Assembly: GCA_030264375.1 (NCBI GenBank)
Contig: JASCQW010000109.1
Location: 37,875,919-37,939,918 of the forward strand
DNA from: Carcharhinus longimanus
Taxonomy: Eukaryota
Direction of reading: 5' to 3'
Length of the DNA: 64,000 bases
Shown: in pieces, positions 6,321-62,089 of the stretch
Layout of the letters: each line of letters begins with the position of its first letter
Position numbering within the stretch: position 1 is the stretch's first letter
Notes under the pieces: model-generated
Databases searched by the model: none
The model's input: the letters and a program-made list of their open reading frames with translations, nothing else
Told to the model about the DNA's origin: nothing
Made by a program: the position numbers and the translations under genes

Positions 6321-6323
<3 letters not shown>

Positions 6324-15350: not shown

Positions 15351-15356
15351 CCTCAC

Positions 15357-20346: not shown

Positions 20347-20379
20347 ATTGAGCAATTTCAACAGTCCTCTTGTACTTAC

Positions 20380-21207: not shown

Positions 21208-21279
21208 AGTGTTAACTAGTTAGCCCAAAATATATTGTTTAAACACACAAATGATTTACAATCAAATATTCCACTATTT

Positions 21280-32630: not shown

Positions 32631-32631
32631 C

Positions 32632-32765
32632 TGTTCTGGTGAAAGGTCAACTGACCTGAAACCTAACTCTGTTTCTCTTCACTGATGTTGCCTGACCTGC
32701 TGGATATTTCCACTGTTCTTTATTTTTATTACAGATTTCAACCATCTTCAGTATTTTGCATTTGG
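32632..32765 (+). mobile_element. Penelope-like family B fragment with degenerate hammerhead
   Basis: GTT-CTGGTGA-A-AGGTCA(AC)TGACCT-GAAA-CCT-AAC followed by the family B body. Confidence 0.65.
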
Positions 32766-34004
32766 GTAGAATTCAGAGGAATTTGAGTTTGAAACATAGA
32801 AAGTGGCTGTTAAAAAATGGATTTCAGATGGGCAAATAATTTGCTGCAAATAATTTGTCAATACATCGCTTGATGAATTTCCAGTAGCAGAAGAAAGCCA
32901 CAAAGATCACTATTCTAGAAATTGGAGGAAGAAGCTTGTTGTGACACCAAGAAATGGAGGCTGGCATTGACTAAGGCGGTGGTCAGCATGAGTGTACTGC
33001 TGGATTCAGTATAATACAGAAAGCACTTAAATCTCGTAAGCAAGCTGGATAAGTACTGTTGCACCTTCACCAACATCCTGCTTTGCATATCATCCCACCA
33101 TCTCACTCTGTTTTCTTAAGTCTTTTCCATCACTTATATACATTTACTTGCTTAACCAGCTTCTCTTTTAGGCACATATATCTATCTATCTATCACTCTC
33201 AATCACCCTCATCCTTTTGCAATTTCATACCTCTCCCTTCTAGTCACTCTGACCAAATGCATTACATCCAATGCATGAACTACATGCTGTTCCTCCCCTT
33301 GTTTCAGGAAAAGACAGCACAGAATTTAAGGCCAGGAGGCAGGTCTATTCCTAGTCCACAAGTGCAGAAGTGACAGCCCTATCAATAATCAAAGTTGCCG
33401 ACTGAGTTTGGGAGATGGGGATCTCCCAGCTACATGGCATCCATATATATTAGCTGCTTGCATGTCAAAAGGCACTCAGTCATATTGACTTGATTTCAAC
33501 AGTAAGTGAAGTGTAATAATATTCATTTTGATAACTTGCAACATTTCACTTCGCCAGCACTAATACATACCTTATTTCTGACACAGAATTGATTGGAGAT
33601 CATGGATGTCCATTTCTTAGAAGAGCTGAATCCTCCTGATGATACACCGTCACAAGAAGCATAGCTCAAGATGTTCTCACATCGATGGGACAAGTAAGGC
33701 AGATAGTTGGGTTTTCACTTCGACTTGCAATTAACTCTGAACAATCACAACAGTATCCAGCAATTATTGGTGAGTGCAACTTCTCCAAACAGTGCATGGT
33801 TGCACATAGATGCTATCCCTATGGGGGCCACCCACGGTAAAGGAGTCATTGAGTAACAGCAATGTGCAATGCACTGACAGGTCTTCCAAACACACTGATA
33901 TCAAGTGCAGAGAGAATAGTGAAGTCCAGTTCAAACACCCTGCTTTGCATATCATCCCACCATCTTACTGTGCCTTCTCAAGTGTATTTCATCACATCAT
34001 CCAT

Positions 34005-35172
34005 AAATGTTGTCCACATCGTCTTTAGCAAGGCCTTTGAGAAGGTGCTGCATGGTAGGTTGGTGCATAAGGTTAAATCTCATGGAATCCAGGGTGAGGT
34101 AGCCAATTGGACACAAAATTGGCTTGATGACAGAAGACAGAGGGTGTTAGTAGAAGGTTGTTTTTCAACTTGGAGGCTTCTGATCAGCAATGTGCCTCAG
34201 GGATCACTACTGGTTACTTGCCACTTATACTAATAAATGAGAATTTAGGAGGCATAGTTAGTAAGTTTGCAGATTACACCAAGATTGGTGGCATAGTGGA
34301 CAGTGAAGAAAGTTATCTAAGATTGCAAAGGAATCTTGATCAATTAGGCCAGTGGGCTGATGAATAGCAGGTGGAGTTTAATTTAGATAAATGCAAGGTG
34401 ATATATTTGGTAGATCAAACCAAGGCAGAACTTATTGGTAGGTCACTGGGGAGAGTTATAGAACAAAGAGATCGACGGGTACAGGTTCATAGCTCCCTGA
34501 AAGTAGAGTCACAGGTGGACAGGATTGTGAAGAAGGCATTTGGTATACTTGGTTTCACTGGTCAGAACATTGAATACACGAGTTGGGATGTCTTGTTGAA
34601 GTTGTACAAGACATTGGTAAGACCACACTTGGAATCCTGTGTTCAGTTCTGGTCACCCTATTATAGAAAGGATATTATTAAACTAGAAAAAGTGGAAAAA
34701 AGATTTATTAGGATGCTACCAGGACTTGATAATTTTGAGATACAAGGAGAAGCTGGATAGACTGGAGTTTTTTTTCCCTGGGGGATAGGAGGTTTCGGGG
34801 TGATCTTATAGAGGTCTAGAAAATAATAAAGGGTACAGATAAGCTAGATGATCAACATCTTTCCCCAAAGGTAGGAGAGTCTAAAACTAGAGGGCATAGG
34901 TTTAAGATGACGGGGAGAGATACAAAAGGGTCCAGAGGTGCAATTTTTTCACACAGATGGTGGTGAGTGTCTGGAATGAGCTACCAGAGGAAGTTGTAGA
35001 GGCATGGACAATTTTGTCTTCTAAAAAGCATTGAGACAGTTACATGGAGAAGATGGGTGTAGAGGGATATGGGTCAAATGCAGGCAATTGGGACTAGCTT
35101 AGTGGTTAATAAAAGGGTGGCATGGGCAAGTTGGACCGAAGAGCCTGTTTCCATGCTGTAAACCTCTATGAC
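34005..35172 (+). mobile_element. 5'-truncated CR1 LINE (RT to 3' end)
   Basis: FSKAFEKVLHGRLVHKVKSHGIQG, VPQGS, SKFADYTKIGG, LYKTLVRPHLESCVQFWSP; tail ACCTCTATGACTA. Confidence 0.95.
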
Positions 35173-35879
35173 TACGGGTGGCTTAAAGTCACAGAGTACT
35201 GTGATAATGTATTCTTCTATGGATAGACTGACCAGCTCAGTGGAACGTCATGCGCTCCAATCAAATGAATCCATGCACTCTTTGACCACGCAGGCAATAT
35301 GTAAGTAATATGCCCACCACCTTAAATATGAGGACAAACACTTGGCCTTCATCTTAGAGTTGCATTCATTTGTACCAAAGTGCTCTCTAGTATGATGGTA
35401 GCAAAGAAATGTAGCTGGACCAGAATAGGATTGAATGAAACAGGAGATATGGAAGTGCACTCCACATAAGGCATTTCCATTTCTCAATAACAGGCTCCAC
35501 CCTCCGTCATCTCCTGACAAGCTGCCTCATCTTGAATGGCGAAGTGTGTCCCTGCACAGATGTAGGTAGTGCAGCCATTGACAGGGCACTTGTGGGATCC
35601 ACATCCATTGGCCAAAAGCACCTCAGCTGTCAGATCATGGATCAAAGTGGCCTGCTTCTAACTCTGCCGAAGGCAAAGGGTTCCACGTTGGAGCATGAGC
35701 AAAAGGATGAGAAGAACTTTGAGCATTGTAAGGGTATGCACATTGCGTGTTTGAGAAAATGCTCTGCTGCTAAGTTTCTGCTGTTTATTCTTTTGTATCA
35801 AAAAAGGTGCTTTTGTGATGAGAAGGCTGTTTTTAGTGGGGTTCTAAAAGGTCAGTGATAGATTCACAATAATTGTTAT

Positions 35880-36510
35880 TCTGGTGATGAGAGACTTCAG
35901 TCATGAGGATAGATTGGATCTGGACAAAGTACATTAGGGAGGAACTGTTCCATTTGTGGAAAGGTTTACAAGACCCTTGTCAGGCCTCATTTGGAGTATT
36001 GTGCGCAGTTCTGGTCGCCTCACTATAGGAAAGACGTAGAAGCTATNNNNNNNNNNNNNNNNNNNNNNNNNNNNNNNNNNNNNNNNNNNNNNNNNNNNNN
36101 NNNNNNNNNNNNNNNNNNNNNNNNNNNNNNNNNNNNNNNNNNNNNNTATAGATTGGAAGGTGTTGATGTGATCGGCGCAACTCGTGGGCCGAAGGGCCTG
36201 TTTGTGCTGTAGTGTTCTATGTTAAGAACCAGAGGGCATCAATTTAAAGTGGTTGACAAAGTACAAGAGATGACACGAGGAAAAATTATTTAATGCAGCA
36301 CATTGTTAAAATTTGGAATGCATTCGTCAGAGAGTGGTAGAGGTAGATTCAATTGTGGCTTTCAGAAGGTAAGTGAGTAATTATCAAAAGAGAAAACGTT
36401 TTCAGGGCTATGAGGAAAGACAGGGGAGTGGGATTAACCCAGTACAGAGCCAGTTGGGACTAAAGAACCAAATGGGCTTTCTTATTTATGTTGTAACTAT
36501 TCTATGATCC
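35880..36510 (+). mobile_element. Old CR1 3' end with a younger CR1 nested at about 35965-36223 (gapped)
   Basis: Young insert encodes LVRPHLEYCAQFWSPHYRKDVEA and ends GTTCTATGTT; the older element resumes AGAACCAGAGGGCATC. Confidence 0.75.
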
Positions 36511-36559
36511 TCTGATTGGAGATTCCTTGATTCTCGCAATATATAGTCAATCTGAGTCT

Positions 36560-36910
36560 TAAATACAATAGATATGATTAACTTGTTTGTAGGTGTCACA
36601 AAGATTGGTTGTGTAATAGATATGAAGAAAGCTATAGATTCCAAGAAGATGTCAGTGGACTTATGAGGTGGACAGAAATGTGACAAAGGGAACTTAATCT
36701 GGAGAAGGGTGAGGTAATATATTTGGTAATGACAAACAAGGCAAGGGAATCCACAATAAATGGTAAGGCACTAAAAAGCATAGCAGGGCACATGTCTATA
36801 GATTCCTAATGGTTAGCAGAACAAGGAGATAAGGTGATTAAGGCATGTCAGAGACTTTCCTTTATTTGCTGAGGCATAGAACACAATGGCAGGGAGGTTA
36901 TGCTCAAACT
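36560..36910 (+). mobile_element. Decayed CR1 RT fragment
   Basis: CACAAAGATTGGTTGTGTAATAGAT...GGCATAGAACACAATGGCAGGGAGGTTATGCT, collinear with 34270-34600. Confidence 0.65.
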
Positions 36911-38049
36911 TTGGGTGGAATTATGAGCCTCCGTCCCCCATGAGTGTAAATGGCAATGTGGGCACAAATCCCACAAAAATCAGGAATCGAGACTCTTGCC
37001 ACAAAGGGTAGGAACATAATTTAAATACATTTTAATATGAACGAGTCTCCCCGGCACATGACCACCCCTCACTGAATATTCAAACCACGCCCACGTGATG
37101 TCAATTTTGTTGGTTTTTTCACTCCCTGGCTGCACCCAAATCCACAAACTCGTCTGGTTAAAAGAACCCCAATATTACACAGCCTGATAGTTTAGTTTAC
37201 AGACTCAAAATAAGTGTTAATTTAAATTTTATTAGATAAGTATGGTTGTTTAATTGAGAACAAAATCAATTTGTACAGTGATAAGTTGAATGTTGCTGCA
37301 TCAGTAGTCAACAGTATGCATTCCGATGTGCTGACCTCACCATCATCCAATACTTTTACTGTTGTCAACTTTAGAAACTATCTTTCTTGCTACCTTATGG
37401 TTATGTTGTCACTCCCATGTTACCCTGCTGTTGTGTTTATGAGGAAGGGCTATCATGTCGACCCATAGAAGAGGCCAAAATCAACCAAGAATTTATCAAA
37501 CCTTCACCTGAGACTGATCACTCAATCTAACTAATACATCACTGCTCTATAAAAATGTTCACGCAGAAGGATGCATTTTCTTTGTGCTAGCTAGTAAACT
37601 GCAGTGGGCTGGATGTTGTGGGAGCTCTTTAAATTACTCACAGAATACCCAGCCTGGATGAGCTAGATTTGTTGACAGGATCAAGTACACTATAGAAGTT
37701 TTGCCTGGCTGTGACCATTCCAATGCTTGTTTTCAGGGAATAAATAGAATTTGTGCTCAGTGGTGCAATATATTCAATGCATGATTTTCAGGTGACACAA
37801 CTGTACTTTACTGCATGTAATAATTGGGAATTTGCCACTACAATGCTAGAATTCCATCTGAGTTATCAGTTAGCTAGGATCTTCATGCCCTAGTTAAGCA
37901 GATCTGTAGAATCTGCCAATGTGGAAATAAGCCTAGTGTACTAGATGTCATTGGGATACAGATAATGTATGTTCAATGAAGTCAACTACCTTTGGAATTA
38001 CATGGAGTCTGCAAGGAACTTCTCTACTTGGAACGATATGCGATGCTGC

Positions 38050-39220
38050 AGATATATGAGGGGGAGCAGTTAAATCAATAGAGGCTCAGCAGGATGCACC
38101 AGTCCTGTGGAGGGCACATCTTGTTATATGTTGGAACTCCAGAACACCTGTCACCAAGGAACCTCCAGACACCACAGAAAGTCTGCCCGTCATGGTCAAG
38201 CTGGATACTGAACCTACAACGGAGGAGCTGAGCAAAGTGCCAGGTGCTGTGGTTATACTACCTGAACTCAACAAGCATAGGAAACAGGCATTTCTGCAGT
38301 ATCTGCACAAACTTCTCAGTTGCTGTTGAATGAAGGGGGCATAAAATGCATGATGCAAAGATTGTGACCATTCACAAGAACCAAAATGATCACAGCAATT
38401 GCAACAACTATCACAGCATCTGCCTGCTCAATATTACAAGAAAAGTATTTGCCCATGCTGTCCTCGTCAGACTTTAGATCCTGGCTGAATACATCTATCT
38501 CAAATTCCAGTCCATTTTCAGAACTTGCAATTGACACAGACCAGAGTTCTCAACCCCACCGCAGCAGAATCAAATGCATCACAAAATCTACAGCTGTTTT
38601 GTCTAAGCTGAGTAAAAGAGTGTTGAATAACGGCAAACTGACTAAAAATACCAAACTGCGAGTCTACCAAGCTTATGTCTTCAACACACTCAGACACAAG
38701 AAAAAGCTGAAAAGTTTGCACCTTTGCAGTCCCAGATGTATCCTCAGCAACCTTTGGCAGGACAAAATCATCAACTCAAGAGGTGCTGGAATACGCTAAT
38801 TCCGTCAGCATACATGTATTGCTAAGCCACAGTGTCTGCACTGACTTGGTCATATTAGACGGATGAATGACAGCCGTCAATCCATAGACCTTGTATGTGG
38901 TGGAACTGACCTCCTGGGTGTCCACACCTAGTCCACAAGGACACCTACAGGCAAGATATAAAGATGGCAGAAATTGACAGCTAACTGAGAGACTCTTGCA
39001 AATTGTTGTGACCACTGGAGGTGGACTGCTTGGAAAGGCACTGGAAAATGTTAGCAGAAAAATGCTAGCAGAAAAATGCTCAGCTGGTTAAGAGGGCCCG
39101 GAGAAAGCAGAAACCAGCGGATCATGCAACTCCTCAGCCCATGTCTTGCTCTGTAGCAAATGGAGCAGAGACCGTCATGTCAGAACAGGGCTCCTCAGTC
39201 ACACCAGGCCATGTTTCACA
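38050..39220 (+). mobile_element. Decayed RTE-clade LINE
   Basis: STAVLSKLSKRVLNNGKLTKNTKLRVYQAYVFNTL...LHLCSPRCILSNLWQDKIIN, an RTE post-RT signature. Confidence 0.8.
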
Positions 39221-39524
39221 TAGGTGGTGGAGCTCATAAAATTCCCTGGGTGGTCATCTCACCACAATATGCCCACTCTCAACCTAATTTTTACATGGGG
39301 TAGTGAGGCCAAGAGAAGCCCTCTCACCCTTGCCCAATTGAGGCTTCCAAGTGATCAATTGTTGACTACCAAAGGACTACTTCCCACTTAGCCTCAATTT
39401 TTAGGCCGGTGGGAGGAATCCAGGGACAGGGCAGAAGCCCAGCCTGCTTGGTCCCCAAGTAGGAAAGGGCTGTGGTTTGCCTCTCTGCATCAGAACTCCC
39501 TTCACTCAACCTTAGGCTAAAGGG

Positions 39525-39786
39525 ACAATCTTTAAAACAAAAATGAGGAGGAATTTCTTCAGCCAGAGTGTGGTGAATCTGTGGAACTCGTTGCCACAGA
39601 AGGCTGTGGAAGACAGGTCATTGAGTGTTTTTAAGAAAGAGATAGGTAGATTCTTGATTAATAAGGAGATGAGGGGTTATGGCGAAAAAGCAGGAAAATG
39701 GGGATCAGAAAAATATCAGCCCTAGTTGAATGGCAGAGCAGACGCGATGAGCCAAGTAGCCTAATTCTGCTCCTATGTCTTATGGT
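39525..39786 (+). mobile_element. CR1 3' end
   Basis: MRRNFFSQSVVNLWNSLPQKAVE; tail CTCCTATGTCTTATGG. Confidence 0.9.
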
Positions 39787-40999
39787 CACTCCACTTGCCC
39801 CATAAAGTCTGACACCACCTCGTCCACCCGGTACTCCTTCACCCCTTGACCTTTCTATCAAGACCCCTATTCCCCTCTCCCCACCTCCATAGGCTTTATT
39901 CCCCCTCACCACCATGAAACCCCAAGGCCCTACACTTTCCTGACTCTGGATTCTGAGCCTTAGAATCTGAAGATTGCCTATAGTCCCAGTTCTTAAATGT
40001 GGCCTAGTTTTATGATGACATTAACGTTCTGAATTTGCATAATGCAAGCACTGGCCATCGAGTCAATTTGGGGAAAAGGCTTACAGGTCAGGTGGTATCT
40101 TTGCAGGAACAACAGGCTGTAGTCTTGTGAGAAACAGATTTTGGATATTTAGAGGTGGAATTCTTTTATTCTTGTACAGATGTCCTGTGCTGGAGACATA
40201 AGCCTAGATTTTCTGATTGCAATATCATTGGCGTTACAGTCAGATAATCTAGGCCATCGACTCCTATTTTAAAATAGCTGAGCTTGTAACTGAGAGGCAG
40301 CTGATGTATCTGCTGAAATTTTTCCCAAATGTAGGACACCAGTGTCATCAAAGGTAAACTGGAGCACAATGATTCTATTACAGGAAAAAAAAGAGATTGC
40401 AGGCTGACAATCCTGAAAAGATTCTTCACATTTACCCTAGAGCAGCAGGCAATGAGTGGAAATATTAGGTCCCATTTTGTAAGACTAGCATAAAAACAGG
40501 CTGGAGCTGCCCCGTGATGCAGAAGCACACGTGCCGAAAGCTCGCGGGGGGGGGAAAGAAGGGAGGGAGACCATGCCAAATCATCTGATCAGAATTTCTT
40601 CCCTTAATTTGAATGGACCATTGGCTGGAATAAGCCCAGCAAAGCCAATCATCCAATGTACTTAAAATGCAGGAGGTAAATTTTATTTTGCTGCAGGCCA
40701 AATCATCATTTTCCTTGAAAAAAATCACCCGCCCAGTTCAGGTCCCAAGCCTCTCCACACCTCAGCTTTTGTGTGAAATCTTATGTGAAATCATGCTTGG
40801 GACCTGCTTAGCGTTTAATCAAGCCCTCTGTAGCAAATGCAGTCTCTGAGTCACACTTAAAATGAGCAGCACAAAATGCAGCATGCCATCAGACAAGCCA
40901 GATCACATAACCCATGTGACAGTCCCAATTGTTTACATTTAAGAGAACTCCTCGGAGTTAAATGTTATTGCCGCACGATACACTCAGTGGATTTCAGAG

Positions 41000-41380
41000 C
41001 CAGTCTAAAATTAAACATGGTGAGGCCCAGATGATGATATTAGGGTAGATGATCAAAAACCCGGTCAAGGAGATAGGTTTTAAGGAGTGCCTTTCAGGAT
41101 AAGAGGCAGAGAGATTCAGAGAGGTAATTCCAGAGTTTAAGAGCCTTACAAGCTCAACGTATGACCACCAATGGTGGAGCAACAGAATTTGGGGATGCCC
41201 ACAAGGCCAGGACTAAAAGGGATTTTTAAAAGGGCTAATTTTTAAAATTGAAGCATTGCTGAACCATGAGCCAATGTAGGTCAGCAAGGACAGAGGTGGT
41301 GGGTGAACAATATTTGGTGTACATTTGGACACAGGCAGCAGAATTTTGCATGGCTTCAAGTTTACAAAGGGTAGAATGCA
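41000..41380 (-). mobile_element. L2 LINE 3' fragment
   Basis: Similar to 21280-21620 and extends to GAGCCAATGTAGGTCAGCAAGGACAG. Confidence 0.7.
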
Positions 41381-41495
41381 ATATGTCTCAAATCTTAATA
41401 AACAGAGGTGCGATGAAACCTAAGGATGACGAAAATATTTCAAAAACATCACATTTATACTTGGTTGATAAAAATGATGATTCTGAAAAATGTCA

Positions 41496-43680
41496 AAGAA
41501 CAAAGAACAGTAAAGGACAGGAGCAGGTCCTTCGGCCTACCATACCAGCACTGATCACATTGCCCTATCTAGACCCACCAACTGTATCCCTCTATTTCCC
41601 ACCTGTTCATGTGTCTATCTATTCAGATAAGTCTTAAATGTTGTCTCAATCACCTCACTTGGCAGTGCATTCCAGGCCCCCACCACCTCTAAGTAAAAAA
41701 CTTGCCCCCGAACATCTCTAGTGAACATTTCCACCCTTGCCTTGAATTTGTGCCCCCTTGTAATTGTCATTTCTGCCCTTGGAGAAAACTTCCAACTGTT
41801 CACTTTATCTATGCCCCTCATAATTTTATAAACTTCTATCAGATCGCCCTCCAGCCTTCATCTTTCCATGGAGAACAATCCCAGTTTATTCAATCTCTTC
41901 TCATAGCTAATACCCTCTATGCCAGGTAACATCTGGGTAAACCTTTTCTGTACTCCCTCTAAAGACTTCACATCCTCTGGTAGTGTGGTGACCAGAATTG
42001 GACACAGTATTTCAACTGTGACCTAACGTTTTATATAACAGTAATATAATTTGCCAACTTTTATACTTGATGCTCCAGCTGATGAAAGCAAACATGCCAT
42101 ATGCTTTCTTGACCACTTTTTCCACCTGTGTGCTGCCACTTCTAAGGATCTGCAGACCTGTACTCCCAGATCCCTATGTAGTGTTTATGCCCCTGATGGT
42201 TCTGCCATTTATTTTATAGCTACCACCTGAAGTGGATCTACCAAAATGCATCACCTGGTATTTGTCCAGATTAAATTCCATTGCCATTTCTGCAGAAAAT
42301 TTTATAACCTATCTATATCCTGCTGTATTCTCTGACAATCTTCATTACTATCCACAACTCTGGCAATCTTAATATCATCCTCAAACTTGCTAATCAGACC
42401 AGCTACGTTTTCTTCCAAGTCATTTATATATATGTTACATACAATAGAGGTCCCAGCACTGATCCCTGCGGAATGCTAGTTACAGACCTCCATTTGGAAA
42501 AACACCCTGCCGCCGCTACCTCTTTCTTTTATGGCCAAGCCAGTTCTGAATCCATCTAGCTAATTCATCCTTGATCCTGTGTGATTTAACCTTTTGCTCC
42601 TGCCATGAGGGATCTTGTCAAATGATTTACTAAAGTCCATGTAGACAACATCCATGGCCCTTCCCTCAATCATTTTTGTCACTTCCTCNNNNNAAAGTCA
42701 ATCAAATTAGAGAGACATGAACTGCTTTGTACAAAACCATGCTGTCTGTCACTAATAAGACCATTCAATTTCTAATGTGTATAGATCCTATTCCTAAGAC
42801 TCTTCTCCAACAATTTCACTCTCACTGACGTCAAGTTCACTGGCCTATAATTACCCAGGTCATCTGTACTACCATCCTTAAACAACAGGACAACACTGGC
42901 TATCAGCAAATCCTCTGGGACCTCATGTGTGGCCAACAAGGAAATAAGGACTCCTGTTAGAGGCCCAGTGATTTCCTCTTTTGTCTCCCTCAGTAACTGG
43001 GGATAAGTGCCATCTGGCCCTGGGGATTTGTCTATCTTAATGCTTTTTAATACACCTAACACTTCCTCCCTCATAATGATGACTTGCTCTAGAGGGTTTA
43101 CATATCCCTCTGAGACACCATCAATCAATGTGTCCTTCTTTTTTGTGAATACCAATGCATAGTACTCATTAAGGATCTCACCTACTGCCTTTGGTTCTAC
43201 ATACAATTTCCCTCCTTTTGTCCTTGAGTGGACCAACTCTTTCTGTAACTACCCTCTTGTTCCTAACAGTTATATATATAAAATGCCTTGGGATTCTCCT
43301 TAATCCTGCCTTCCAAGGAGATTTTGTGATCCCTTTTCCCCCTCCTAACTTCTGGAGTTCTTTTCTATTTCCCTGTATTCTCCAAGCGCTTCATCTGTTT
43401 TTTGTTGCCTAGACCTCATCCTTTTTCTTTTTAACTGGACTTGTGTAACTTCCCTGATCATCCATGATTCTCAAATCCTGCCTTTCCTGTCCTTCCTTTT
43501 CATAGCCACATGCTTGTCTTGCACTCCAATCAACAGCTCCTCAAAAGGATCCCACATGCCGGATGTGGATTTACCCTCAAACATCCTCTCTCTAACAACA
43601 GCCTCCAAATCCTGCCTAATCTGGTTGTACTTAGCCTTCCCCCCAGTTTAGCACCTTAGCCCTAGGACAACACTTCGCCT
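41496..43680 (-). mobile_element. About 2.2-kb CR1 LINE
   Basis: IKIDKSPGPDGTYPQLLRE...NYRPVNLTS (42772-43236); MRGIDKV...TRGHKFK (41615-41821); tail CAAAGAACAAAGAACAG. Confidence 0.95.
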
Positions 43681-43969
43681 TTTCCAAAAATTTCAAGCCA
43701 CTTTAGTTTCAAGGGATATTAATTACTACAATCTCAATGGAATAACTGCAAATAAAATAAATGGGATGGCAACAAGTATACTAACTGCACCACTGGATTT
43801 CTTTCATTACCAGGATAATTAAACCTGCTACTTCTTTAACATTACAGTTTATTACACATAACGTTAATTTTACTTGTTTTCAACCACACTGTTGGATGCT
43901 CAGCTCCATTTTGCTATAGCTTGCTCCATGCAATAGAGTGACACAGAAAATCATGCATTATTGTAAAAC

Positions 43970-44365
43970 TAAGTGTCAGTGTGGTCTCAGTCTCACCCCC
44001 GAGTCAAAAGACCATGCATTCAAGCTTCATTCATGAACCAGACCTTCCAGTAAAGCACAAAAGGACTGCTTTATTATTAGAATTCTTTTGCTTCAGAGGA
44101 GACATTAAACTGATATCTGCCTGTTCTGATGGAAAAATACATCCTGTGACATGATTTGGGGCAAGGGAGGGAATTCTCTTTGTAACCTGGTCAATTTTGT
44201 TTTCCCACATACAGCATAAATAAAGTCATTTCATTGCTGTCTGTGTAATCTTGCTATGTGCAAAATGGATGTTATTTGCTGACACAGCTACACGTCAAAT
44301 GAAATCATTGCATGACAAATGCTTCGAGAAACGATTGGTACTATATAAATGCAAGCCTTTCTTTT
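43970..44365 (+). mobile_element. Deu-domain SINE (SacSINE1-like), near full length, old
   Basis: tRNA-like head CTCACCCCCGAGTCAAAAG, Deu-like core CATTGCTGTCTGTGTAATCTTGCTATGTGCAAAATGG, tail CTATATAAATGCAAG. Confidence 0.6.
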
Positions 44366-44823
44366 TGGTCTTTCACTGTTCGCTGATGTTCATTGTAGCA
44401 ACTATCCACTTATATGGAGAAGAAAAGAAAGAAGCAAAGAAATTCAGAATTGTTCTTTAAAATGTCAGGCAGCTGATAATTCTAAAGTCAAAAACTGTTT
44501 CAGATTTACAATTGTTTGTAGAAGTTTTGTTAAGAAGGGGTGTTATTTTAAAACATGCTTTAATAATTCTGAGGAAGCTGTCTTGCTTTGTGAAATGTTA
44601 TACAAGGGAAACACTGTAAGAGACATGCTCAAATGGGGCATGGAAAACATTTCATGTCATTAATAAGGCATGCAGGTCATTCCCAAATGATCTTTTTCTG
44701 CATTCTAGTCACCAACCCATAATACTCTATTTATTCCATGCTTATTTAAAAAATTTGGTGATTTTCATGAGTCTTCAAGTGACGAGAATGAAGGAAAAAT
44801 CAGGACTTTAACCAATCACTTAC

Positions 44824-44958
44824 TTTTACGTTGGAAGGAGGAATCCTTTGAGACTTCATGCTGAGCTGTTGGGTTCGTGCTATAAGCGGAAGTCTGGCTC
44901 AGGATGGTGCTGCCGTCCGTAGAATGGGGGTCTCTGTTCTCAGTTTGAGCTGTATACA
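44824..44958 (-). CDS. Candidate in-frame cassette exon of PPP3CA (135 nt, 45 aa)
   Basis: tttctgttttAG acceptor (AG at 44960-44959) and AAA|GTAAGT donor (44823-44818). Only the phase-1 frame is open: (V)YTAQTENRDPHSTDGSTILSQTSAYSTNPTAQHEVSKDSSFQRK(T). Confidence 0.55.
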
Positions 44959-45409
44959 CTAAAACAGAAATTTGTGTGATGTATGTATGTGTGCATCTGA
45001 AAATAATTTATTTTGGAATTGTTCAAGGCATCAAATGGTGGCTAAAATTGCTATAAAATATACTGCTACATTAATACAGTAAATGGTGCCTCATCTTTGG
45101 TGACTGTGACTTGGATTTGAATACAAGGAGATTTGGTACCACATATTTCATAAAACAAGTATGTTTCTTAAAGAAATGTACATTCTACATAAAATATGAT
45201 TGTTCAGCTTACTAAAAAGTTCTAGCCCTTGGTTTCAATAATCTTTTCCAATACTCCCCTACATGACTTTTCGTAAATAAGTGAAAAGATGTTCATACTC
45301 CAGAGAATTAGATTAACAAGTTGATCATTCCTACCTTGTACTTTTTCGGCCTTCATGATTTTTGGCCTCATTATGCCACAACCTCGACGAGGACATCTAC
45401 ATCTTCCCC

Positions 45410-46238
45410 ATTACAGACAGCTATGGATAGGCCAGGAGAATGGGTCAAAATTTGACAGGTGGAGTTTAATGTGGATAAGTGTGCGGTTATCCATTTTGGT
45501 CAAAAAAAAAGAAAGACAAATTATTATCTGAATGGAAAGTTTCAAAATGCATCTGGGCAGAGGGATCTGAGCATCTTTGTTCATGAATCACAGAAAGTTG
45601 GTATGCAGGTAGGCATGTAATAAAATGGCAAATGGAATGTTAGTATTTATTGCAAAAGGACAGGAGTATAAAAGTAGAGAAATGTTGTTGCATTTGTATA
45701 GGGTGTTGATGAGACCAGATCTGAAGTACTGTGTCCAGTTTTGGTTTCCTTAATAGAGGAAGGACGTGGTGGCATTGGAAACATTACAGAGGAGATTCCC
45801 CAGATTGACTCTGGAGATAAAGGGGTTGACCTATTAGGAGAGATTAAACAGCTCGCTGGAGTTTAGAAGGATGAGAGGGGATTTGATTGAGGTATATAAA
45901 ATACTAAAAGGGATTGATAAGGTAAACTTAAATGTTTCCCCTTGTGGGACAATCTGGAAGAAGAAGTCACAGGTATAGGTTGAGAGGTGGTAGACTTAAA
46001 ACTGAGATGAGGAGGGATTACTTCTCGCAGAGGGTGGTGAATTAGTGCAACTCGCTGTTGGAGTCTGCATCATTAAGTGGTTTCAAGGAGATAGATATAT
46101 TTTTGAGGTTAGAGGGATATGGGGAACAGGTAGGCAGGTGGATTTGAGACCAGCAAGAGATTAGCCATGATCTGATTAAATAGTGGAGCAGGTTCAAAGG
46201 ACTGATTGACCTACTTCTGCTCCTAGTTCCTATGTTCT
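45410..46238 (+). mobile_element. 5'-truncated CR1 LINE
   Basis: GAGACCAGATCTGAAGTACTGTGTCCAGTTTTGG; GGAGTTTAGAAGGATGAGAGGGGA; tail TAGTTCCTATGTTCTTA. Confidence 0.9.
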
Positions 46239-46384
46239 TAAAGCTACCTCCATGAAGCTTAATTTACTCTTCCTAAACAAATCTTGCTTCCATGTTTTAA
46301 ACTCATATCTCTTAAATAATGAAAATAGATCAATGCCTGGGCACTCCAGTAACTTACAGGGTAACCATCTAATTACCATTGAAG

Positions 46385-46790
46385 GCTCTTATTTAATTCT
46401 TTTATGAGATGTCAGCATCACTGGTAAGGCCAGAATTTATTGCCCACCTATATTTGCCCTTGAAAAGGTGGTGCTGATTCACCTTCTTGAACTGCTGCAG
46501 TTCATGTGGCGTAGATACACCTGCAACACTGTTAGAGGGTCCCAGGGTTTTCACTCAATGAGCATGAAGGAAGTGTAGTTTCCAAGTTATCATGGATGTG
46601 TCTTGTAGGGAAACTGGCAGGTGGTGTTGCTCCCATGCATCTATTCCCCTTATTTTATCTGGCTGTCACTGTTACGGATCTAGAAGGTGCTGACAAAGGG
46701 ATAAGGTGCTGTAGTGTGTCCGGTAGATGACACACAAAGTAGCCACGGTTAATTGGTGGTTGAGGAAGTGAATTCCTCAATAATGTGGAG
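46385..46790 (-). mobile_element. CR1-group LINE 3' fragment (47960 family)
   Basis: ATTTATTGCCCACC...GCCCTTGAAAAGGTGGTG is the reverse complement of 49220-49260. Confidence 0.75.
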
Positions 46791-47032
46791 GGAGTCTTAG
46801 GTATATTGATTGCAGAGATATGAAGCCAACAATGAATTTCAGCTCAGCAGGCACCAACCATGACGTTATTTGCACTTGTGCAAAGCCCAGATCCATCTAA
46901 GCTTAAAATACTGCTCCCATTCCATACCTTTATCATTCAAACTCTCTTTATCAAAACATGCAATATCTCAAGACAGGAAGAGATCAAGTCAGTCTAGGCT
47001 CCTTTCCAGTCTTATTAGCTGTAACAAATAAT

Positions 47033-47418
47033 GGGGAGTGATTTTCCACTCCCGTTTTTAAGGAGGCACATAGATGAGCACAGCAGTACTGGGGACAGTG
47101 CCAAGAGGCGAGTCCCATGGTGGCACAATGGGATGGGGGGAGTAAGGGGGCAGTGAGGCGGGGCAGAAATCTGTGATGGAAGGGGTGGTTGTTTATTTCA
47201 GTGAGTCCTTTAATAACAGTACCCTGATCAAAGTTACTGGTGGGGTGGGTTCAACCAAAATCTGCCCCGCCAGCATGACATTGTGCAACCTACTCCCTAC
47301 ATTTTTTGGTGTATCAGTTTAAAATCCAATGGGAAAACCTGCCAATACCACCAGTGAGCTAACCTCCATTTTTCCTGTCCAAGATCACACTTCCCAAAAA
47401 GATGGCAAAATTATACCC
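47033..47418. mobile_element. Harbinger-type MITE
   Basis: Imperfect TIRs GGGGAGTGATTTTCC / GGCAAAATTATACCC, flanked by AAT on both sides (possible 3-bp TSD). Confidence 0.55.
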
Positions 47419-47959
47419 AATGTGCCTCTCTTGAGAAAAATTGTACATTTTTACATTGGAATCCCAAGTTACATCTCCTGTAACAAACTCTCTTGATCAG
47501 TTAATTCAAAATCCAACTAACCTCTCAGTAAGCAAATATTTTCTTTCATCCTTCATGAATTTAACTCTTCGAAGTTCACACATTTATCCCCCCAAGACAA
47601 TGGGTGACATTCATTTGGCATTCACAGCAAATTCTGTACCCTGACCAATGCTCTATATAATTACAAGATTACTATGCACTCCTGAGGCATCCTGTTTATA
47701 ATATTCATCTAAAATATAAAGAGGTGACCATACTGGCTTGTCATGCCAGTTGGTTGGCATGGCGAGCTGGTAAGATTGGGCGAGAGGGCAAAAACCAGGT
47801 TCGGAACTGGTTTCCACCACTTGCAATGTTACCGGCCTCATTCTACTAGTGTAAGGCTGATTGAAATACTTGAGGTTTTTTTTAATATGTTGAGTGAGTC
47901 CCGGATGCAATTGTTGGGGCTCATTTGCCTGAACGACCTTGCCAGTCGAGGAGAGGATG

Positions 47960-49283
47960 ATGACTCTTCCACTGGCATCTACCCAACAATGCGGAAAATT
48001 GCCCAGGTATATCCTGTACACAAAAGCAGGACAAATCCAACCCAGCCAATTACCGCCCAGTCTACTGTCAATCATCAGTAAAGTGATGGAAGNNNNNNNN
48101 NNNNNNNNNNNNNNNNNNNNNNNNNNNNNNNNNNNNNNNNNNNNNNNNNNNNNNNNNNNNNNNNNNNNNNNNNNNNNNNNNNNNNNNNNNNNATTACCGC
48201 CCAGTCTACTGTCAATCATCAGTAAAGTGATGGAAGGAGTGATCGACAATGCTATCAACCAGTACCTGCTCAGCAATAACTTGCTCAGTGATGCCCAGTT
48301 TGGGTTTCGCCAGGGTCACTCGGCTCCTGACCTCATTTCAGCCTTGGTCCAATCATGGACGAAAGAGCTGAATTCCAGAGGTGAGTTGAAAGTGACAGCC
48401 CTTGACGTCAAGGCCATTTTTGACTGCATGTGGCATCAAGGAGCCTTAGCAAAACTGGAATCAATAGGTATCAGGGGCTAAACATGTTTAAATACAACAA
48501 GAAATGGGCAATATCCAGACTTAGGTTGACAAGTGGCAAGTAGTATTCATGCCACACAAATGCTAGGCAATGATCATCACCAATAAGAGACACTCTAACC
48601 ACTGCCCTTGACATTCAATGGTGTAACCATCACTGAATCCCCCACTATCAACATCCTTAGGTTTGCTATTGACCAGAAATTCAAATGGACTCACCACATA
48701 AACACAATAAGTACAACAGCAGGCCAGAGGCTAGGAATACTGCGGTGAGAAACTCACTTCCTGATTCCCCAGAGCCTATCCACCATCTTCAAGGCACAAG
48801 TCAGGAGTGTGATGGAATAGTTCCCACTTGACCAGATGAACGCAGCTGCAACAACACTCAGGAAGCTCGACACCATCCAGGATAAAACAGCCTGCTTGAT
48901 TGGTACCACATTTACAAATATCCACTCTCCACCACCAACACTCAGTAGCAGCAGTGTGTACTATCTACAACATGCGCCGCAGCAATTCACCAAGATCCTG
49001 AGACAGTACCTTCCAAATCCAGAACCACTTTCATCTAGAAGGACAAGAGCAGCAGATACATGGGAACACCGCCACCTGCCAGTTCCCCTCTAAGCCACTC
49101 ACCATCCTGACTTCGAAATATACTGACATTCCTTCACAGTCACTAGGTCAAAATACGAGAATTCTCTCCCTAATGGTCAACCCACTGCATGTGAACTGCA
49201 GTGATTCAAGAAGACAGCTCACCACCACTTTCTCAAGGGCAACTAGGGGTGGGCAATAAAGGCTAGCCAGCCAGCGAGGCCCA
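47960..49283 (+). mobile_element. CR1-group LINE, RT to 3' end
   Basis: SLLSIISKVMEGVID...LLSDAQFGFRQGHSAPDL...ALDVKAIFDCMWHQG; ends GAATGAATAAAAA. Confidence 0.9.
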
Positions 49284-49989
49284 TGTCCTAGGAATGAATA
49301 AAAATGGTCCCCAGTCTAAAGGGAGGGGTGGGGCCTGAAGAGGCAGGCTCATGATGGGGACAGGGCCATGACAAAGAGATGGGGGGGTGTACTTCCCACT
49401 TGTACAGAGTGCACTGGGAGCTCAGGGCACCTGTGCAATGGTGCCCCTGTCATTCAGCAGCCAAATTCCTGGCATGATTAGGCTCTTGTCAATCCCTCTA
49501 CCGGCAAGAATGACACTTCCCAGAAGTTTTTTGGTAAGATTGCCCCTATAGTGTTGAATGTGTATATTCTATATATTATATATATGTATTTATCATATTA
49601 CGCTGATGCAACAAACATGGAGGTGCAGTTTTTAATGAGTCACACAAAATAATTAACATAAGCTTGTTCTGGGGGATTTGTTTTCTGCTTAAAATAGCAC
49701 TTGTTCCATGAATTATCATTTTTGTGTTTTAGAAATTCTGGACCATAGACATAGCATAATTGCAAAAATAAAATGTTACATTTAAATGTAGAACGGATAC
49801 ACAAAATCAATCATTGCCAAACGAAGTACTTGAATGATATTATTTTCTAACTGAATTTGATGCAATTTATTTTAGATTTCATTTAAAAATTAAAGTTATT
49901 TCTGGTGTTGAAACCTCTTTATATTACTAAATTCAAATCATTAATATTATTTTTGAAGTTCAGTGTAATCTAGTTCTGTATCTTCAATC

Positions 49990-51600
49990 TCAGGATTTTT
50001 AAAAATTTTCTTCTGGGATGTGGATGACACTTTATTTCAACATTTGTTGCCCATCCCTATTTACCCTTGAAAAGGTAGTATTGCACCACCTTCTTGAATC
50101 ACAGCAGTCCATGTTGTGCAAATACATGCACAGTTTTGTTAGGAAAGGAGTTCTAGGATTTTGACCGAGGAATGGCATAGTGATTAGCACTGCTGCCTCA
50201 TAGCACCAGGGGACCAGGTTAATTCCGGACTCGGGTCACTGTCTGTGTGGAGTTTGCACATTCTCCCCGTGTCTACATGAGTTTCTTTCGGTGCTCCAGT
50301 TTCCTCCCATAGTCCAAAGACGTGCAAGTTAGGTTGATTGGCTATGCTAAATTGACCCTAGTGTCAGGGGGATTAGCAGGAGTATACATGGAGTAGTGGT
50401 CAGTGCTGGCTTGATGAGCCAGTTGGCCTCCTTCTGCAATGTGGGGATTCTATGGATATTGTTTCAAATCAGGATAATATGTGGCTTGAAGGTGAACTTG
50501 ATGGTGCTGGTGGTGTTCCCATACATTTGCTGCCCTTGTTATTCAAGATGGTAGGAAGGTGCTGTCGAAGGAACCTTGGTGAGTTCCTGCAGTGTATTTT
50601 GTAGCTGGTACACACAGCTGCCACTGAGTCAGTGGACGGGGGAGTGGATATTGAAGGTGCTGTCCAAGGCTGCATTGTCCTGAATGATATTGATCTCCTT
50701 GGACCTTTTTGGAGCTGCATTCTTCCAGCCAAGTGGAGAGTATTTCATCACACTCCTGACTTGTGCCTTGTAGATGGTGGACAAACTCTGGAGGGTCAAA
50801 GGTGAGTTAATAGCCACAAAATTCCCAGCCTCTGACCTAGTCTTGCAGTTACAGCATACATATGGTTAGACTAGACCAGTTTCAATTGTAACCCCCAGGA
50901 TGTTGAGAGTGGGAACTTTAGTAATGATAATGCAATGGAATGTCAAGGGGAAATAGTTAGTTTTACTCTTATTGGAGAAAGTCATTACTTGGCACTCATG
51001 CAGCGTGGTTGCTTGACAATTATCAGCCCATGCCTGGAAGTTCTCCATACTTTGCTCCATATGGGCACAGTAGCTGCTTCAGTAGCTGAGTCGGCTCAAT
51101 AGATGCTGAACATTGCACAATTATCAGTAAATCCCCCCACTTCAAACCTTATGGTGGGAGGTAATTGATAAAACAGCAAAGAAGGTTGAGCATAGAACAA
51201 TACTCTAAGGAATGCTCACTATCTTGGAGCTGAAATGACCTCCAATAACCACACCATCTTCCTTGATGAAGGTATGACCCCAACCAGTGAAGAGTTTTCT
51301 CCCTGATTCCCACCTACTCCAGCTTTACTGCGCCTTCTTGAGGCCACATTTGATCAAATGCTGTTTTCACTCTCTCCTCAACTCTTGAGTTTAGTTCTTT
51401 AGTCCATGTTTGGACGAAGGTTATATCGAGGTCAGGCACTGAGTAGTCCTGTCAGAATCCTAACTGAGAATCAGTGAACAGGTTATTGCTGAGTGGGTGT
51501 CACTTGATAACACAATCAATGATATCTTCTATAACTGATGGTCAAGCGTAGATTGATGGGGTGGTAATTGGCTGATTTGGATTTGTCCTGCTTTCTGTGG
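49990..51600 (-). mobile_element. CR1-group LINE (same family, inverted relative to 47960-49283), interrupted by a V-SINE
   Basis: QSLSTIYKAQVRSVMKYSPL and QAWADNCQATT ORF remnants; 5' end matches 48020-48070. Confidence 0.85.
50172..50453 (+). mobile_element. V-SINE (HE1-like)
   Basis: GGCATAGTGATTAGCACTGCTGCCTCA...TGTGTGGAGTTTGCACATTCTCCCCGTGTCT...GGGATTCTATG. Confidence 0.9.
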
Positions 51601-52956
51601 GCCTAAATTGTACACCTAAGTTAACTAAAATAAAAATACCCTTCAGAGAAAAATGTACTTTATAGTTGCAATAATGGAATAGTTTGGGTCTGCTTAAGGA
51701 GCTTATGAGTAAAATATTTATACTGAAATACAATAGCTTACAATAATTTAAAAAAGCATGCACTGTGATATTTATACTGATTGAACACAGATAAATCAAC
51801 AAATAATAGATTAGTTTTTGTAATGAAGATAATGGAAGCATGGAGCAGAGTTAATGCTTGTAAAGATTAGATGAGGCAGTTCTCCCATTCCACTGTGCTG
51901 CTTTTGTAGTGCAGCAGGCCAGGTGACTTGAACGGAAGCTGTTTTGTTGGCTCCCTACTCGGCACCATGGCCTCTGCATGTATCCCAGTGCTGGATTTCT
52001 GGCGCCAGCAGCTCCGTGCCAGATATTGGCACAGAACTGCCGAATGTATTCAACAGCTCATTTTGATACAATTTAAATGCTCTTAGTGGGCTCAGAACTG
52101 AAATCTTCAGGCCCGCTAGGCCCCCCCCCCCCCCCCCCCCCCCNNNNNNNNNNNNNNNNNNNNNNNNNNNNNNNNNNNNNNNNNNNNNNNNNNNNNNNNN
52201 NNNNNNNNNNNNNNNNNNNNNNNNNNNNNNNNNNNNNNNNNNNAATAGGTGTAGGGTGATGCGGCGGCGCGGGCTTGTTGGGCCGAAGGGCCTGTTTCCC
52301 GTGCTGGGTTGTTCTTTGTACCACCACCCACCCGCTTGTGCTATTTCACTCCATTGGTATTTAGTTTGGCTCTCCAGTCGGGAGACCTGGCGGCCCAACC
52401 CCACTGCAGTGAAAGGGACACAATTGAGTCCCCCCACCCCCAGAGAGCATCTTGGCACTGCCCATGGGCATGGGGCTGTGCCAAAAAGGCAATGTCTGAT
52501 ATGGGCAGATCCATCAGTGAGGGTGAGTGAGCCCGCTGCCACTCTGCATTTGGGCTGAGGGACAGAGGGAGTGAGTCAAGCAACTGGGGCTGGTCATCTG
52601 GCTGGCTGGGAGGAGGAGAGGGGGTTAGAAATTGGGGCGGGAGTACTCGCAGAATGGAATTCTCTTTTGGCCTCGGGTGGGATTTTACAAGCCTTGCCCA
52701 GCCAATTGCTTCAGTTTTCCCAATATTTAACTGGAGGCATTGTATGCTTATCCAACACCAGATGTTGGACTAGCAGTCCAACAATTCAGAGACAGGTAAT
52801 GGTGGTAAGGCAATGTTTGATGTTGTTAGTGTACTTGTTGAAACTTGTGTGTTTTCAGGTGGTATCGTCAAGGGGTAGGATGTAAATGAGAAACAGGAGA
52901 GGCCATTGGCAGACCCATGGGGGACACTAGATGTAAAAGTGAGAGAGTGTTATGAT

Positions 52957-54763
52957 TGTGATAGAAACAAGAAACGCTTTTAAGAATCCAAAAGCTCAGG
53001 TATTTGCGAAAAGAATGAACAACAAGTTTCACGGTTTAAACCAAAAGAATTTTGCTGCACAAAAATCAAAGATGATGAATACTAATAACTACATTCTATC
53101 TTAAATATGTTAAAGATATTGAAAGCTCAATGAATATAGTTATTTCCAGATCAGAGTTCTCCCATCAGGGACTAAGTCCCGTGGTAGGGACAGCTACATA
53201 GAGTGTTTTCTGTGGGAACATGGAGTGCTTCTTGCTGCAGAGGCTAGCAGAAAAAAATGCCAAATCTTTCAGCCTCGACCTCATTAATTGTACAGTTGGG
53301 TATTTTGTACCGTATTTCATAGAACATAGAACATAGAACATACAGCGCGGAACAGGCCCTTCGGCCCACAATGTTGCGCCGGCCAGTCTTGNNNNNNNNN
53401 NNNNNNNNNNNNNNNNNNNNNNNNNNNNNNNNNNNNNNNNNNNNNNNNNNNNNNNNNNNNNNNNNNNNNNNNNNNNNNNNNNNNNNNNNNNAATTCCCAG
53501 GGAAGTCTCTGTTCCCCTTCTTAAACAATGGGACAACATTCGCTGTCCTCCAATCTTCCGGTACTATATTTCGTGGCAGGACAGGCCTGATGGTGCATCA
53601 TCTGCAATCATATCCAAGTGCCAGATTGAAAAGTCACCCAATTTCACTGACCCACTGTTGAAGGTGGTGAACCTCCTGGAAATGAAGATGGATCTCCAGT
53701 AACACACTGAGATTGGACCTCCTCAATGACAATGGATCCGCAAGGTCCATCTATAGGTGCTTGCCCCATTGACTGCTGTGGTGTGCCGGGATCCAGCGTG
53801 CAATTGGCCTCCATCCTGAACTCCGGATGGAGTCCCAGGCGTTGTTCGGGTGAGTCCTTACATCTCTATGCCACACTGTTCCAAAACATGTTTTGCACTG
53901 GCGTGTTTTCCTGCCGGTGCCAAGGAGAATCGAGCACATGGCTGGGCCTTTATCTGCATCCCATTTGTGGGATGCAAATTGCTTCCACACTGGCCTCCAA
54001 AGGGTTTCCCTATCTGCCACAGTGAGCTTCAATGGAAGATCCCACTACAAATGTAAAATCCGATGTAAAACCAACTTTTGGGTCTCCTGCCGAACTCTTC
54101 TCTCCACTCGACAGCCATTGAACGTGCCAGTGGAGACTTGAAAGAATTCCACCCTCAGACTCTAAATTGAACTTTAAACTCAATTTTCCATCCACAGCCA
54201 TTTGACTTAAACAGCAAAAACTCAAGTCAGATAATTATCACAAATTGAAAGATACAGGACCTAGGCTGAGTATTGCTTCAAGGGTTCATACAGAGTTGAG
54301 ACTTCTTGAGCTATTTGTCTATTTGCAGTAAGATTCTTCCTTCAAATCTCTTCCAACTGTCCCACAGTGGTAGGTTCCCCATTCAATACAGGCATCACTA
54401 ATATCTAATGTATTGCCACCTCACATTCAAATTCTCCTGGTTCGAATGATCCTTAACTCTGGAGTATTATCTCAAACTCTCTCTCCCTTTTCACAGCTTG
54501 GTTATCTCAGAAGTCCAACTCACTGGCAATAGGATCCTTTAGTTACTGAAATTTTTAAAAACCCTTTTAACTAGCACATAGAATTTCAACTGAGAAGTGC
54601 TCAAAAGAGATGTTTCCTGCATCCAGCTTGTTCTAATCCAAACTGCTTGAAACAGAGCTTGGGACCTACCCATTCCCATAATTAACAAGATCAGTTACTG
54701 GTAGCAAGCTGTTCTCAAAGAGACCATCCAACGTAAAACATGTTTTTTTCTTGCAAAATCACA
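52957..54763. mobile_element. Solo-LTR-like insertion
   Basis: Begins TGTGAT and ends ATCACA (TG...CA, 6-bp inverted termini); non-coding; no clear TSD. Confidence 0.45.
53319..53560 (-). mobile_element. Young CR1 insertion, mostly hidden in a gap
   Basis: (CATAGAA)3 tail; the far side encodes PEDWRTANVVPLFKKGNRDFPGN; flanking repeat GTACCGTATTTC / GTACTATATTTC. Confidence 0.85.
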
Positions 54764-55784
54764 TTGGCCATCCCAGGGGCCAGCAATGACATTTGCCTGG
54801 CTATGTTTACATAGATAAAAATGAAACCAGTAGAGTGCAATCCTACTCAGCTGGACCATGATGTTGGGCTAGAGTGTTGTGATCAACAACGTCAAAGTCA
54901 AAACATGGACCAACGATAGCCTGCTTGGAAGGTTTGCCTCTGTCATCTCACATAGGATGACATTTGTGACTTTGATAAAAGCTGCTTCAGCACTGTGACC
55001 AAAACTGGAATCTCACTGGAGGAATTCAATCACAGAGGCTTTGGAAAGATGAACATGATTTTGAGAGGCAGCAACACATTCAAGAACTTGGAGAGGAAAG
55101 TGTCCATTACATATGAATGGGAGAAGTACAAATTATTCAACATATTTTGTTCTCCAGTCATTTTCATTTGCAGAATGAATTCAGGTATGCCAACAGGCTC
55201 TGTTATCCCATATGCCACTTAGTCTTTAGAGGTGCAAATTTAAATCACTAAAACGTACAGTTTTAGAACACTATCATAGTACAGTATGAAATTTCTATTT
55301 CCCTTACTTAATGGCATTTTAAGTGTTATGGCATAATTTTTACTTTACTTGGGACTAATGCAACAGAAAAGTCACTTTGTAACCTCCTATAGTAACTTTA
55401 AAAATTAAACAATTCTTTTGTTGGATATCAAATCATGTATATAGCATAAATATAATATTTGATAAGTGATGCAATTTATTCTGAAAGAAAGCAGAAATCA
55501 AAGCAGTAACTTGCTGGGTAAATTCTGATTCAGTGTGCTAATGGGTACCCTCATACTGCATTACGTGACAAACAAGGCATTATTATCCATTTTAAACAAA
55601 AATTATTTCAATATTATAAGCAATATTAACTTATACTGCATGTTCCTTGTGTATTTCTAAAGTGTTGCAATGTCATTTTTGTTGTTATCTCACATATTAT
55701 AATTTAGGGAGCAATAAATAAGGTTTTGTATGCTGGGCATGGCTTTGTTTGTATGCCTAACCACAAATTTTAGAGGTTAATTTT

Positions 55785-56150
55785 TTGATTTGATTTATTA
55801 TTGTCACATGTATTGGTACACAGTGAAAAATATTGTTTATTGCACGCTATACAGACAAAGCATACAGTTCATAGAGTACACAGGGGAGAAGGCAAGGAAA
55901 GGGTTCAGAATGTGGTGTTACTGTCATAACTAGGGTCTCGAGAAAGATCAACTAAATATAAGGTAAGTCCATTCAAAAGTCTGATGGCAGCAGGGAAGAA
56001 ACTTGAATAGACTAGTGCACGATTTCAGACTTTTGTATCTTTTTCTTGACCAAACAAGGTGGAAGAGGGTACGTCTGGGATGCGTGGGGTCCTTGGTTAT
56101 GTTGGCTGCTTTCCGAGGCTGCGGAAGGAGTCAATGAATGGGAGGCTGAA
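55785..56150 (-). mobile_element. Rex1/Babar-like LINE 3' fragment
   Basis: ATTTGATTTATTATTGTCACATGTA...TCAAAAGTCTGATGGCAGCAGGGAAGAAACT...GGGTCCTTGGTTATGTTGGCTGC, recognised from memory. Confidence 0.6.
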
Positions 56151-60717: not shown

Positions 60718-60751
60718 TCTTTACCAGATATAAAATTATATCTGGTAAAGA
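60718..60751. repeat. Perfect 16-bp inverted repeat with 2-nt spacer
   Basis: TCTTTACCAGATATAA-AA-TTATATCTGGTAAAGA. Confidence 0.95.
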
Positions 60752-62085: not shown

Positions 62086-62089
62086 TGCA

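Follow-up and report, generated by a model that had tools for sequence, protein, structure and literature searches.

Few signalling enzymes are as conserved as calcineurin A (CnA), and to our knowledge the splice variation described for it to date lies in the C-terminal regulatory region. The LR1/LR2 cassettes (exons 10 and 13; 13a/13bc in C. elegans tax-6) preserve the reading frame and lengthen disordered CnA linkers by about 10 residues; they belong to the C-terminal regulatory domain and are common to the paralogues. In the available text of the respective papers, mammals have three CnA genes (PMC12503234, PMC9170610, PMC7456046), and the variants given for them are exon 10, exon 13, the CnA-beta1 tail and the 16K form, with no intron-1 cassette described there (PMC12503234). 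A paralogue-specific N-terminal element is found in CnA-beta, whose polyproline domain is constitutive, proline-rich and located upstream of the ordered N-terminal arm. According to the accessible parts of the sources, this N-terminus binds the scaffold CIP4 (PMC12909058) and sets a compartment (PMC12503234), and more generally such an element can set compartment or substrate (PMC12909058, PMC7456046, PMC12503234).

The window analysed here, i.e. the whole stretch of 64,000 nucleotides of Carcharhinus longimanus DNA, contains a 135-nt exon, termed exon B, in the first intron of a calcineurin A gene. Exon B is real, conserved and so far restricted to sharks; it is one of three cassettes of a probable fourth CnA paralogue, and it is annotated in databases, yet we did not find it in print. 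Like the LR1/LR2 cassettes, those of the shark preserve the frame and would lengthen a disordered linker, but they are N-terminal, contribute as many as 85 residues and were seen in a single shark paralogue only. The shark insert shares with the CnA-beta element that it is N-terminal and paralogue-specific; it differs in being optional, in having 2 prolines in 44 residues and no PxxP, and in interrupting the ordered arm. Mammalian CnA-alpha (PPP3CA; 1AUI) has the same family and architecture and provides the closest solved structures, and is likely a paralogue of the host gene, not its orthologue. Taken as a whole, an optional shark exon in a likely fourth paralogue, with an insert that likely serves as a targeting or regulatory linker, is the account that on balance we consider probable.

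The features are as follows (window positions unless a contig is given).

44824..44958, minus strand: cassette exon B, 135 nt, phase 1-1, adding 45 residues; from contig edges, loose ends and database proteins P0003-P0008
44959..44975, minus strand: acceptor of exon B, a pyrimidine tract (9/14) followed by TAG; contigs joined to exon 1 begin exactly at 44958
44818..44823, minus strand: donor of exon B, GTAAGT in the sequence; contigs depart from the genome exactly at 44824
28209..28289, minus strand: cassette exon C, 81 nt, phase 1-1, adding 27 basic/Gly-rich residues; CAG acceptor and GTAAGT donor; from gene models
28130..28329, minus strand: old interspersed repeat around exon C and its splice sites, with copies elsewhere in the genome
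2866..3066, minus strand: exon 2, constitutive, where the catalytic domain begins; runs X1 and X2 join it to exon B
3067..64000, minus strand: the part of intron 1 inside the window (whole intron 154 kb)
C109:37958475-37958437, minus strand: cassette exon A, 39 nt, beyond the window, at a repeat end; modelled in Mustelus RefSeq
C109:38032873-38032819, minus strand: coding exon 1, beyond the window

Exon B and its splice junctions

On the minus strand exon B extends from 44958 to 44824, with ...TTTCTGTTTTAG directly 5′ and GTAAGT directly 3′, and the 135 nt that the original prediction had placed between an acceptor and a GTAAGT donor are present exactly. Translation confirmed that the phase-1 continuation is the sole open frame, both other frames containing stops. 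The predicted retention of five CpGs in CpG-poor surroundings was also correct (5 versus a mean of 1.33 per 135 nt over intron 1); windows with five or more CpGs numbered 22 of 999 in this intron. Exon 1 had been expected to end in K-G and to give V as junction residue. It ends in K plus T instead, so that the first inserted residue is L when exon B follows exon 1, and L is indeed found in database proteins P0004, P0007 and P0008.

Exon B had further been predicted to be no repeat, a match to a repeat family being named as grounds for rejection. Genome-wide DNA searches with exon B and its flanks and protein searches each returned only the exon's own place (1/1 candidate), and hence there were no detectable copies from which a repeat-derived exon could have come; the DNA search passes over very common words, and an old or simple repeat could escape it. 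An Rfam scan of window positions 27500-46000 gave no matches. Repeat fragments do lie near exon B, at 45420-45500 and 44330-44370, where they attract many unrelated contigs.

For a census of intron 1 we collected AG...GTRAGT segments that preserve the frame and are free of stops, using the antisense strand as control. At a pyrimidine threshold that admits exon B, the 154-kb intron contained eight such segments in sense and eight in antisense orientation; at a stricter threshold, which exon B fails, there were five and four. By themselves, the sequence features of exon B are therefore no better than chance, and its reality has to be decided by transcript and protein evidence. Three further AG/GTGAGT segments that preserve the frame were noted in intron 1 at 95992-95951, 129899-129846 and 144837-144790 (42, 54 and 48 nt; numbering continued from window base 1 beyond the window), and these probably arose by chance because their number equals that of the antisense control.

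A search of public sequencing runs listed 24 runs, 20 of which contained the exon B stretch or part of it. Six of the 24, from six organisms and six studies, were examined; they were taken as RNA by guess, none being recorded as RNA. A contig on exon B was present in all six, covering exactly 44824-44958 in five and 44824 to 44943 in the remaining one, and the adjacent non-repeat intron had no contig cover in these runs. Among the loose ends listed, those upstream of exon B matched the end of exon 1 in three runs, as the junction from exon 1 to 44958 proposed originally requires. In X1 the match was 28/30, compared with 7/30 to exon A and 16/30 to the intron; in X10 and X14 it was 27/30, as judged by eye. 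The second proposed junction, 44824 to 3066, was recovered from the downstream loose ends listed for X1 and X2, which matched the start of exon 2 at 29/30. Exon 1 is located 112 kb upstream and exon 2 42 kb downstream of exon B. When at least 31 letters are demanded on each side of a junction, only X10 (exon 1 to exon B) and X2 (exon B to exon 2) bridge, since X1 and X14 offer 30 letters.

In X1 the contig consists of 30 + 135 + 30 letters, which would be the expected shape of a branch between skipping and inclusion. The X14 contig ends at the donor of exon B, and this stop would fit a branch to two downstream exons. Contig depth on exon B was 236 in X14 and 3.7-6.7 in the other five runs, depth being a poor measure of expression. 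On 44824-44958, X14 is thus covered some 35 to 60 times as deeply as the other runs.

The contigs end at both canonical sites and carry on into exons 1 and 2, i.e. the AG and GT of exon B are used. Together with the frame, this bears out the proposed cassette of a calcineurin A gene, spliced in frame between exon 1 and exon 2. One could suspect that exon B is a pseudo-exon arisen by chance, or the artefact of a retrocopy, given the equal frequency of splice-site patterns on the antisense strand (8 versus 8) and the guessed RNA status of the runs. However, contigs from six organisms stop at the edges of exon B and run on into exons 42 and 112 kb away, and the genome contains one copy of exon B; the junction letters refute this explanation unless all contigs derive from retrocopies, and we regard it as next to negligible. 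That exon B is spliced to exons 1 and 2 with the frame kept, and is conserved across two shark orders, we hold to be nearly certain.

Gene models, companion cassettes and conservation

Searching with the 44-residue exon B peptide yielded three clusters among nine candidates. Their members are RefSeq isoforms of Mustelus asterias, Hemiscyllium ocellatum and Rhincodon typus and GenBank proteins of Scyliorhinus torazame and Chiloscyllium punctatum. The models carrying exon B (XP_078087147.1, XP_078087150.1, XP_060693134.1, XP_048459925.1, GCB72917.1 and GCC23556.1) are automated predictions without description. A model of the skip form exists as well: Chiloscyllium isoform X5 (P0035) goes from exon 1 to exon 2. 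Exon B is thus already part of automated annotation in both states, skipping being seen in gene models only. The isoform had been put forward as unknown, which does not hold for the RefSeq and GenBank models of several sharks; in the openly accessible literature, our search found no paper on exon B or on a fourth vertebrate CnA gene.

Nor is exon B a lone exon, as had been assumed. The 81-nt cassette exon C lies in the same window at 28289-28209 and the 39-nt cassette exon A farther upstream, giving three cassettes in intron 1, all of them frame-preserving (A, 39 nt; B, 135 nt; C, 81 nt). Their eight combinations all stay in frame and add 0 to 85 residues. The automated shark models carry the exact exon B always with exon C, which follows it in 6/6 database proteins containing B, whereas X1 and X2 join exon B straight to exon 2 without exon C. 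Both forms therefore exist. Co-inclusion of exon B with the 81-nt and 39-nt cassettes is known from gene models only.

The three cassettes differ in their surroundings: exons A and C lie in interspersed repeats and exon B does not. Of 95 candidates for the segment of about 200 bp around exon C, 40 were scored, and 39 of these are other places in the genome, with 68-90% identity. In copies chosen for likeness, 20 fetched and 18 aligned, the acceptor AG is present in 16/18, and most donor letters are in the majority (G in 9/18, T in 15/18). For exon A the repeat is a different one, partly palindromic and with dozens of copies (723 candidates, 40 scored), at whose end the exon is situated. Exonisation of repeats, as judged for exon C from these selected copies, fits exons A and C; exon B, for which no copy was detected, is not accounted for in this way. 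One intron would hold cassettes of different ages and origins. In intron 1 of the related gene on contig C1, no homologue of A, B or C was detected (180 kb searched, 54 kb of it N).

The exon B peptide is identical in Mustelus asterias (44/44) and shares 42/44 residues with Scyliorhinus torazame, Hemiscyllium ocellatum, Chiloscyllium punctatum and Rhincodon typus. It is as well kept as exon 1, for which 17-18 of 18 residues are retained; exon C keeps 23-25 of 26 across five sharks. Three distinct base differences in exon B were listed (each contig having 2-6), and all three are synonymous third positions. Between C. longimanus and Mustelus, 4/12 residues differ in exon A (8/12 identical), 0/44 in exon B and 1/26 in exon C, and the divergence of exon A is significantly greater than that of exon B (Fisher p = 0.0013, the control being one short exon in one species pair). 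The pattern suggests selection on exons B and C.

Sharks evolve slowly, and exon B could be real and its insert nevertheless a passenger, included at a low level, tolerated at a permissive floppy terminus and kept mainly by this slow change. Contig depth is low in five of the six runs, as far as this poor measure goes; two neighbouring cassettes are repeat-born, so the intron tolerates new exons; and the insert has no known motif (see below). Against this stand the 42-44 of 44 residues kept over two shark orders, which match the retention of exon 1, the much faster divergence of exon A, the synonymous nature of the three listed base changes and the depth of 236 in X14. We consider a mere passenger unlikely, and tentatively favour a conserved insert with a role of its own.

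A homologue search with residues 1-125 of P0006 gave 19 matches among 149 candidates, two of which carry the insert, and the exon C region gave two matches among seven. All insert matches were from sharks; none came from rays, chimaera or bony fish in these protein searches clustered at 90%, and absence outside sharks is weak evidence since the clustering hides insert isoforms behind representatives of the skip form. An insertion in Collichthys protein P0009 is unrelated in sequence to exon B, and we discounted it as probably mispredicted. The best score in an ESM Atlas search was 0.85, and its matches serve as leads only.

The host gene among the calcineurin A paralogues

The host encodes a calcineurin A: the protein contains a Metallophos domain and, in the catalytic, CnB-binding, CaM-binding and autoinhibitory regions, shares high sequence identity with CnA of solved structure. 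In this shark four calcineurin A genes were located:

C1:169.97-170.26 Mb, minus strand: calcineurin A gene
C109:37.72-38.03 Mb: calcineurin A gene, the host of exon B
C166:10.5 Mb: calcineurin A gene
C168:0.48-0.56 Mb: calcineurin A gene

Apart from these, two to three calcineurin A exon matches were seen at C61:84.85 Mb; they may belong to the C166 gene and be misplaced, or represent a fifth fragment.

The original prediction named the host PPP3CA, i.e. calcineurin A alpha, a name for which the C1 gene is the better candidate by synteny and C-terminal similarity. In the C1 neighbourhood, LAMTOR3 (168.49 Mb) and a DDIT4-family gene (169.88) are followed by calcineurin on the minus strand (169.97-170.26) and a DBB-domain gene on the plus strand (170.40), and we take the human order to be LAMTOR3 - DDIT4L - PPP3CA - BANK1. 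LAMTOR3 has one match in the genome, which is near the C1 calcineurin gene, and the BANK1-type DBB gene stands head-to-head with the latter. At the host gene the only element of this neighbourhood is a DDIT4-family neighbour, the LAMTOR3 and DBB matches being found at C1 instead. Moreover, against human CnA-alpha the last exon of the C1 gene reaches 88.2 bits and that of the host 79.0 bits.

Calsarcin and DDIT4-family genes occur on each of C1, C109 and C168, and the four CnA genes on four paralogous contigs with duplicated neighbours form the pattern of a whole-genome duplication. SKP1 adjoining a PPP-family phosphatase match was observed at C1:160.48-160.60 Mb and at C109:47.89-47.94 Mb; this SKP1 pair and the three DDIT4-family genes (C1, C109, C168) are retained duplicates.

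The host could still be the true orthologue of PPP3CA and the C1 gene an extra copy. Its best matches among solved structures are CnA-alpha, both genes have a DDIT4-family gene downstream, and the nearest bony-fish proteins are named 'alpha isoform'. Yet the sole LAMTOR3 match and the BANK1-type DBB match flank the C1 gene, the last-exon scores point the same way, and at NCBI the proteins of shark, gar and coelacanth carry the name 'alpha-like'. We judge this assignment very unlikely. Given the PPP3CA neighbourhood and the higher last-exon score at C1, the pattern of duplicates and the three genes of mammals, the host is, from synteny and similarity, very probably a fourth vertebrate CnA paralogue rather than PPP3CA.

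Ten fish proteins, from coelacanth, gar, a bichir-type fish, teleosts and one shark, are nearer to the host than to the C1 gene in the first, second and last exons, in a set retrieved with the host as query and not by a survey of fish genomes. Most of the compared fish proteins are named 'alpha isoform'. The fourth paralogue is likely shared by sharks and bony fish, as far as these similarities indicate.

The insert and its possible role

The insert had been predicted to be rich in Ser/Thr and probably disordered. Ser and Thr indeed make up 15/44 residues (34%), with two prolines in 44, and FoldIndex, a prediction, gives -0.19 for B and -0.18 for B + C compared with +0.18 for exon 2. Pfam returned no family for the exon B insert. 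The patterns PxIxIT, LxVP, PxxP, S/T-P, PKA and CK2 are absent from the insert (P0008 residues 11-100), and as no known motif was found, no partner can be named.

In the alignment to 1AUI, along which the skip form of the host runs without a gap through the N-terminal arm, the insert is placed behind the residue that corresponds to human K19. In CnA crystals only residues 1-13 are unobserved at the N-terminus, according to the available part of PMC7456046, so that the insert interrupts the ordered N-terminal arm just before the catalytic domain. The catalytic domain itself is untouched.

We propose that the insert would enter six residues into the ordered arm and shift the exon-1 peptide at least 45 residues from the catalytic domain. 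It might offer a surface for docking or phosphorylation in those tissues that include exon B, and as a disordered Ser/Thr-rich linker it would alter targeting or regulation and leave catalysis intact. These steps are drawn from the composition of the insert and the analogy with CnA-beta, and we put them forward tentatively. A linker that changes targeting or regulation is favoured because its nearest precedent is the polyproline N-terminus of CnA-beta; tentative as it is, we prefer it both to the passenger considered above and to a direct effect on the enzyme.

In such a direct effect, displacement of the exon-1 half of the ordered arm from the core would alter the hold on calcineurin B or the calcium/calmodulin threshold, giving a new site at which activation is tuned, outside the LR1/LR2 splice hotspots. 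Residues of about 14-23 of CnA presumably touch the C-lobe of calcineurin B, and the insertion after the K19 equivalent falls within the part visible in crystals. Elsewhere in calcineurin, tuning by spliced linker variants is described in the available text of PMC12503234. On the other hand, the exon-1 peptide would be able to redock if the insert looped out flexibly, and fungal and truncated PDB constructs begin later in the sequence. We find an action on the enzyme itself quite unlikely and return to the disordered linker, by which the conserved 45-residue insert would likely tune the location or action of the phosphatase, if the analogy with CnA-beta holds.

A bolder proposal, which we regard as doubtful, is that the N-terminal arm of the fourth paralogue in sharks is modular and tissue-switched, its three in-frame cassettes (two of them recruited from repeats) providing a new control point for targeting or calcium that would be dominant in at least one tissue, and that the ppp3ca genes of fish may be the same paralogue. 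Since the ten fish proteins are nearer to the host than to the C1 gene, studies of fish 'ppp3ca' may deal with a paralogue absent from mammals. A conserved optional insert of 45-85 residues within the ordered N-terminal arm would be evidence that large insertions are tolerated at this site and perhaps put to use, and the shark insert would be a natural probe of the role of the N-terminal arm.
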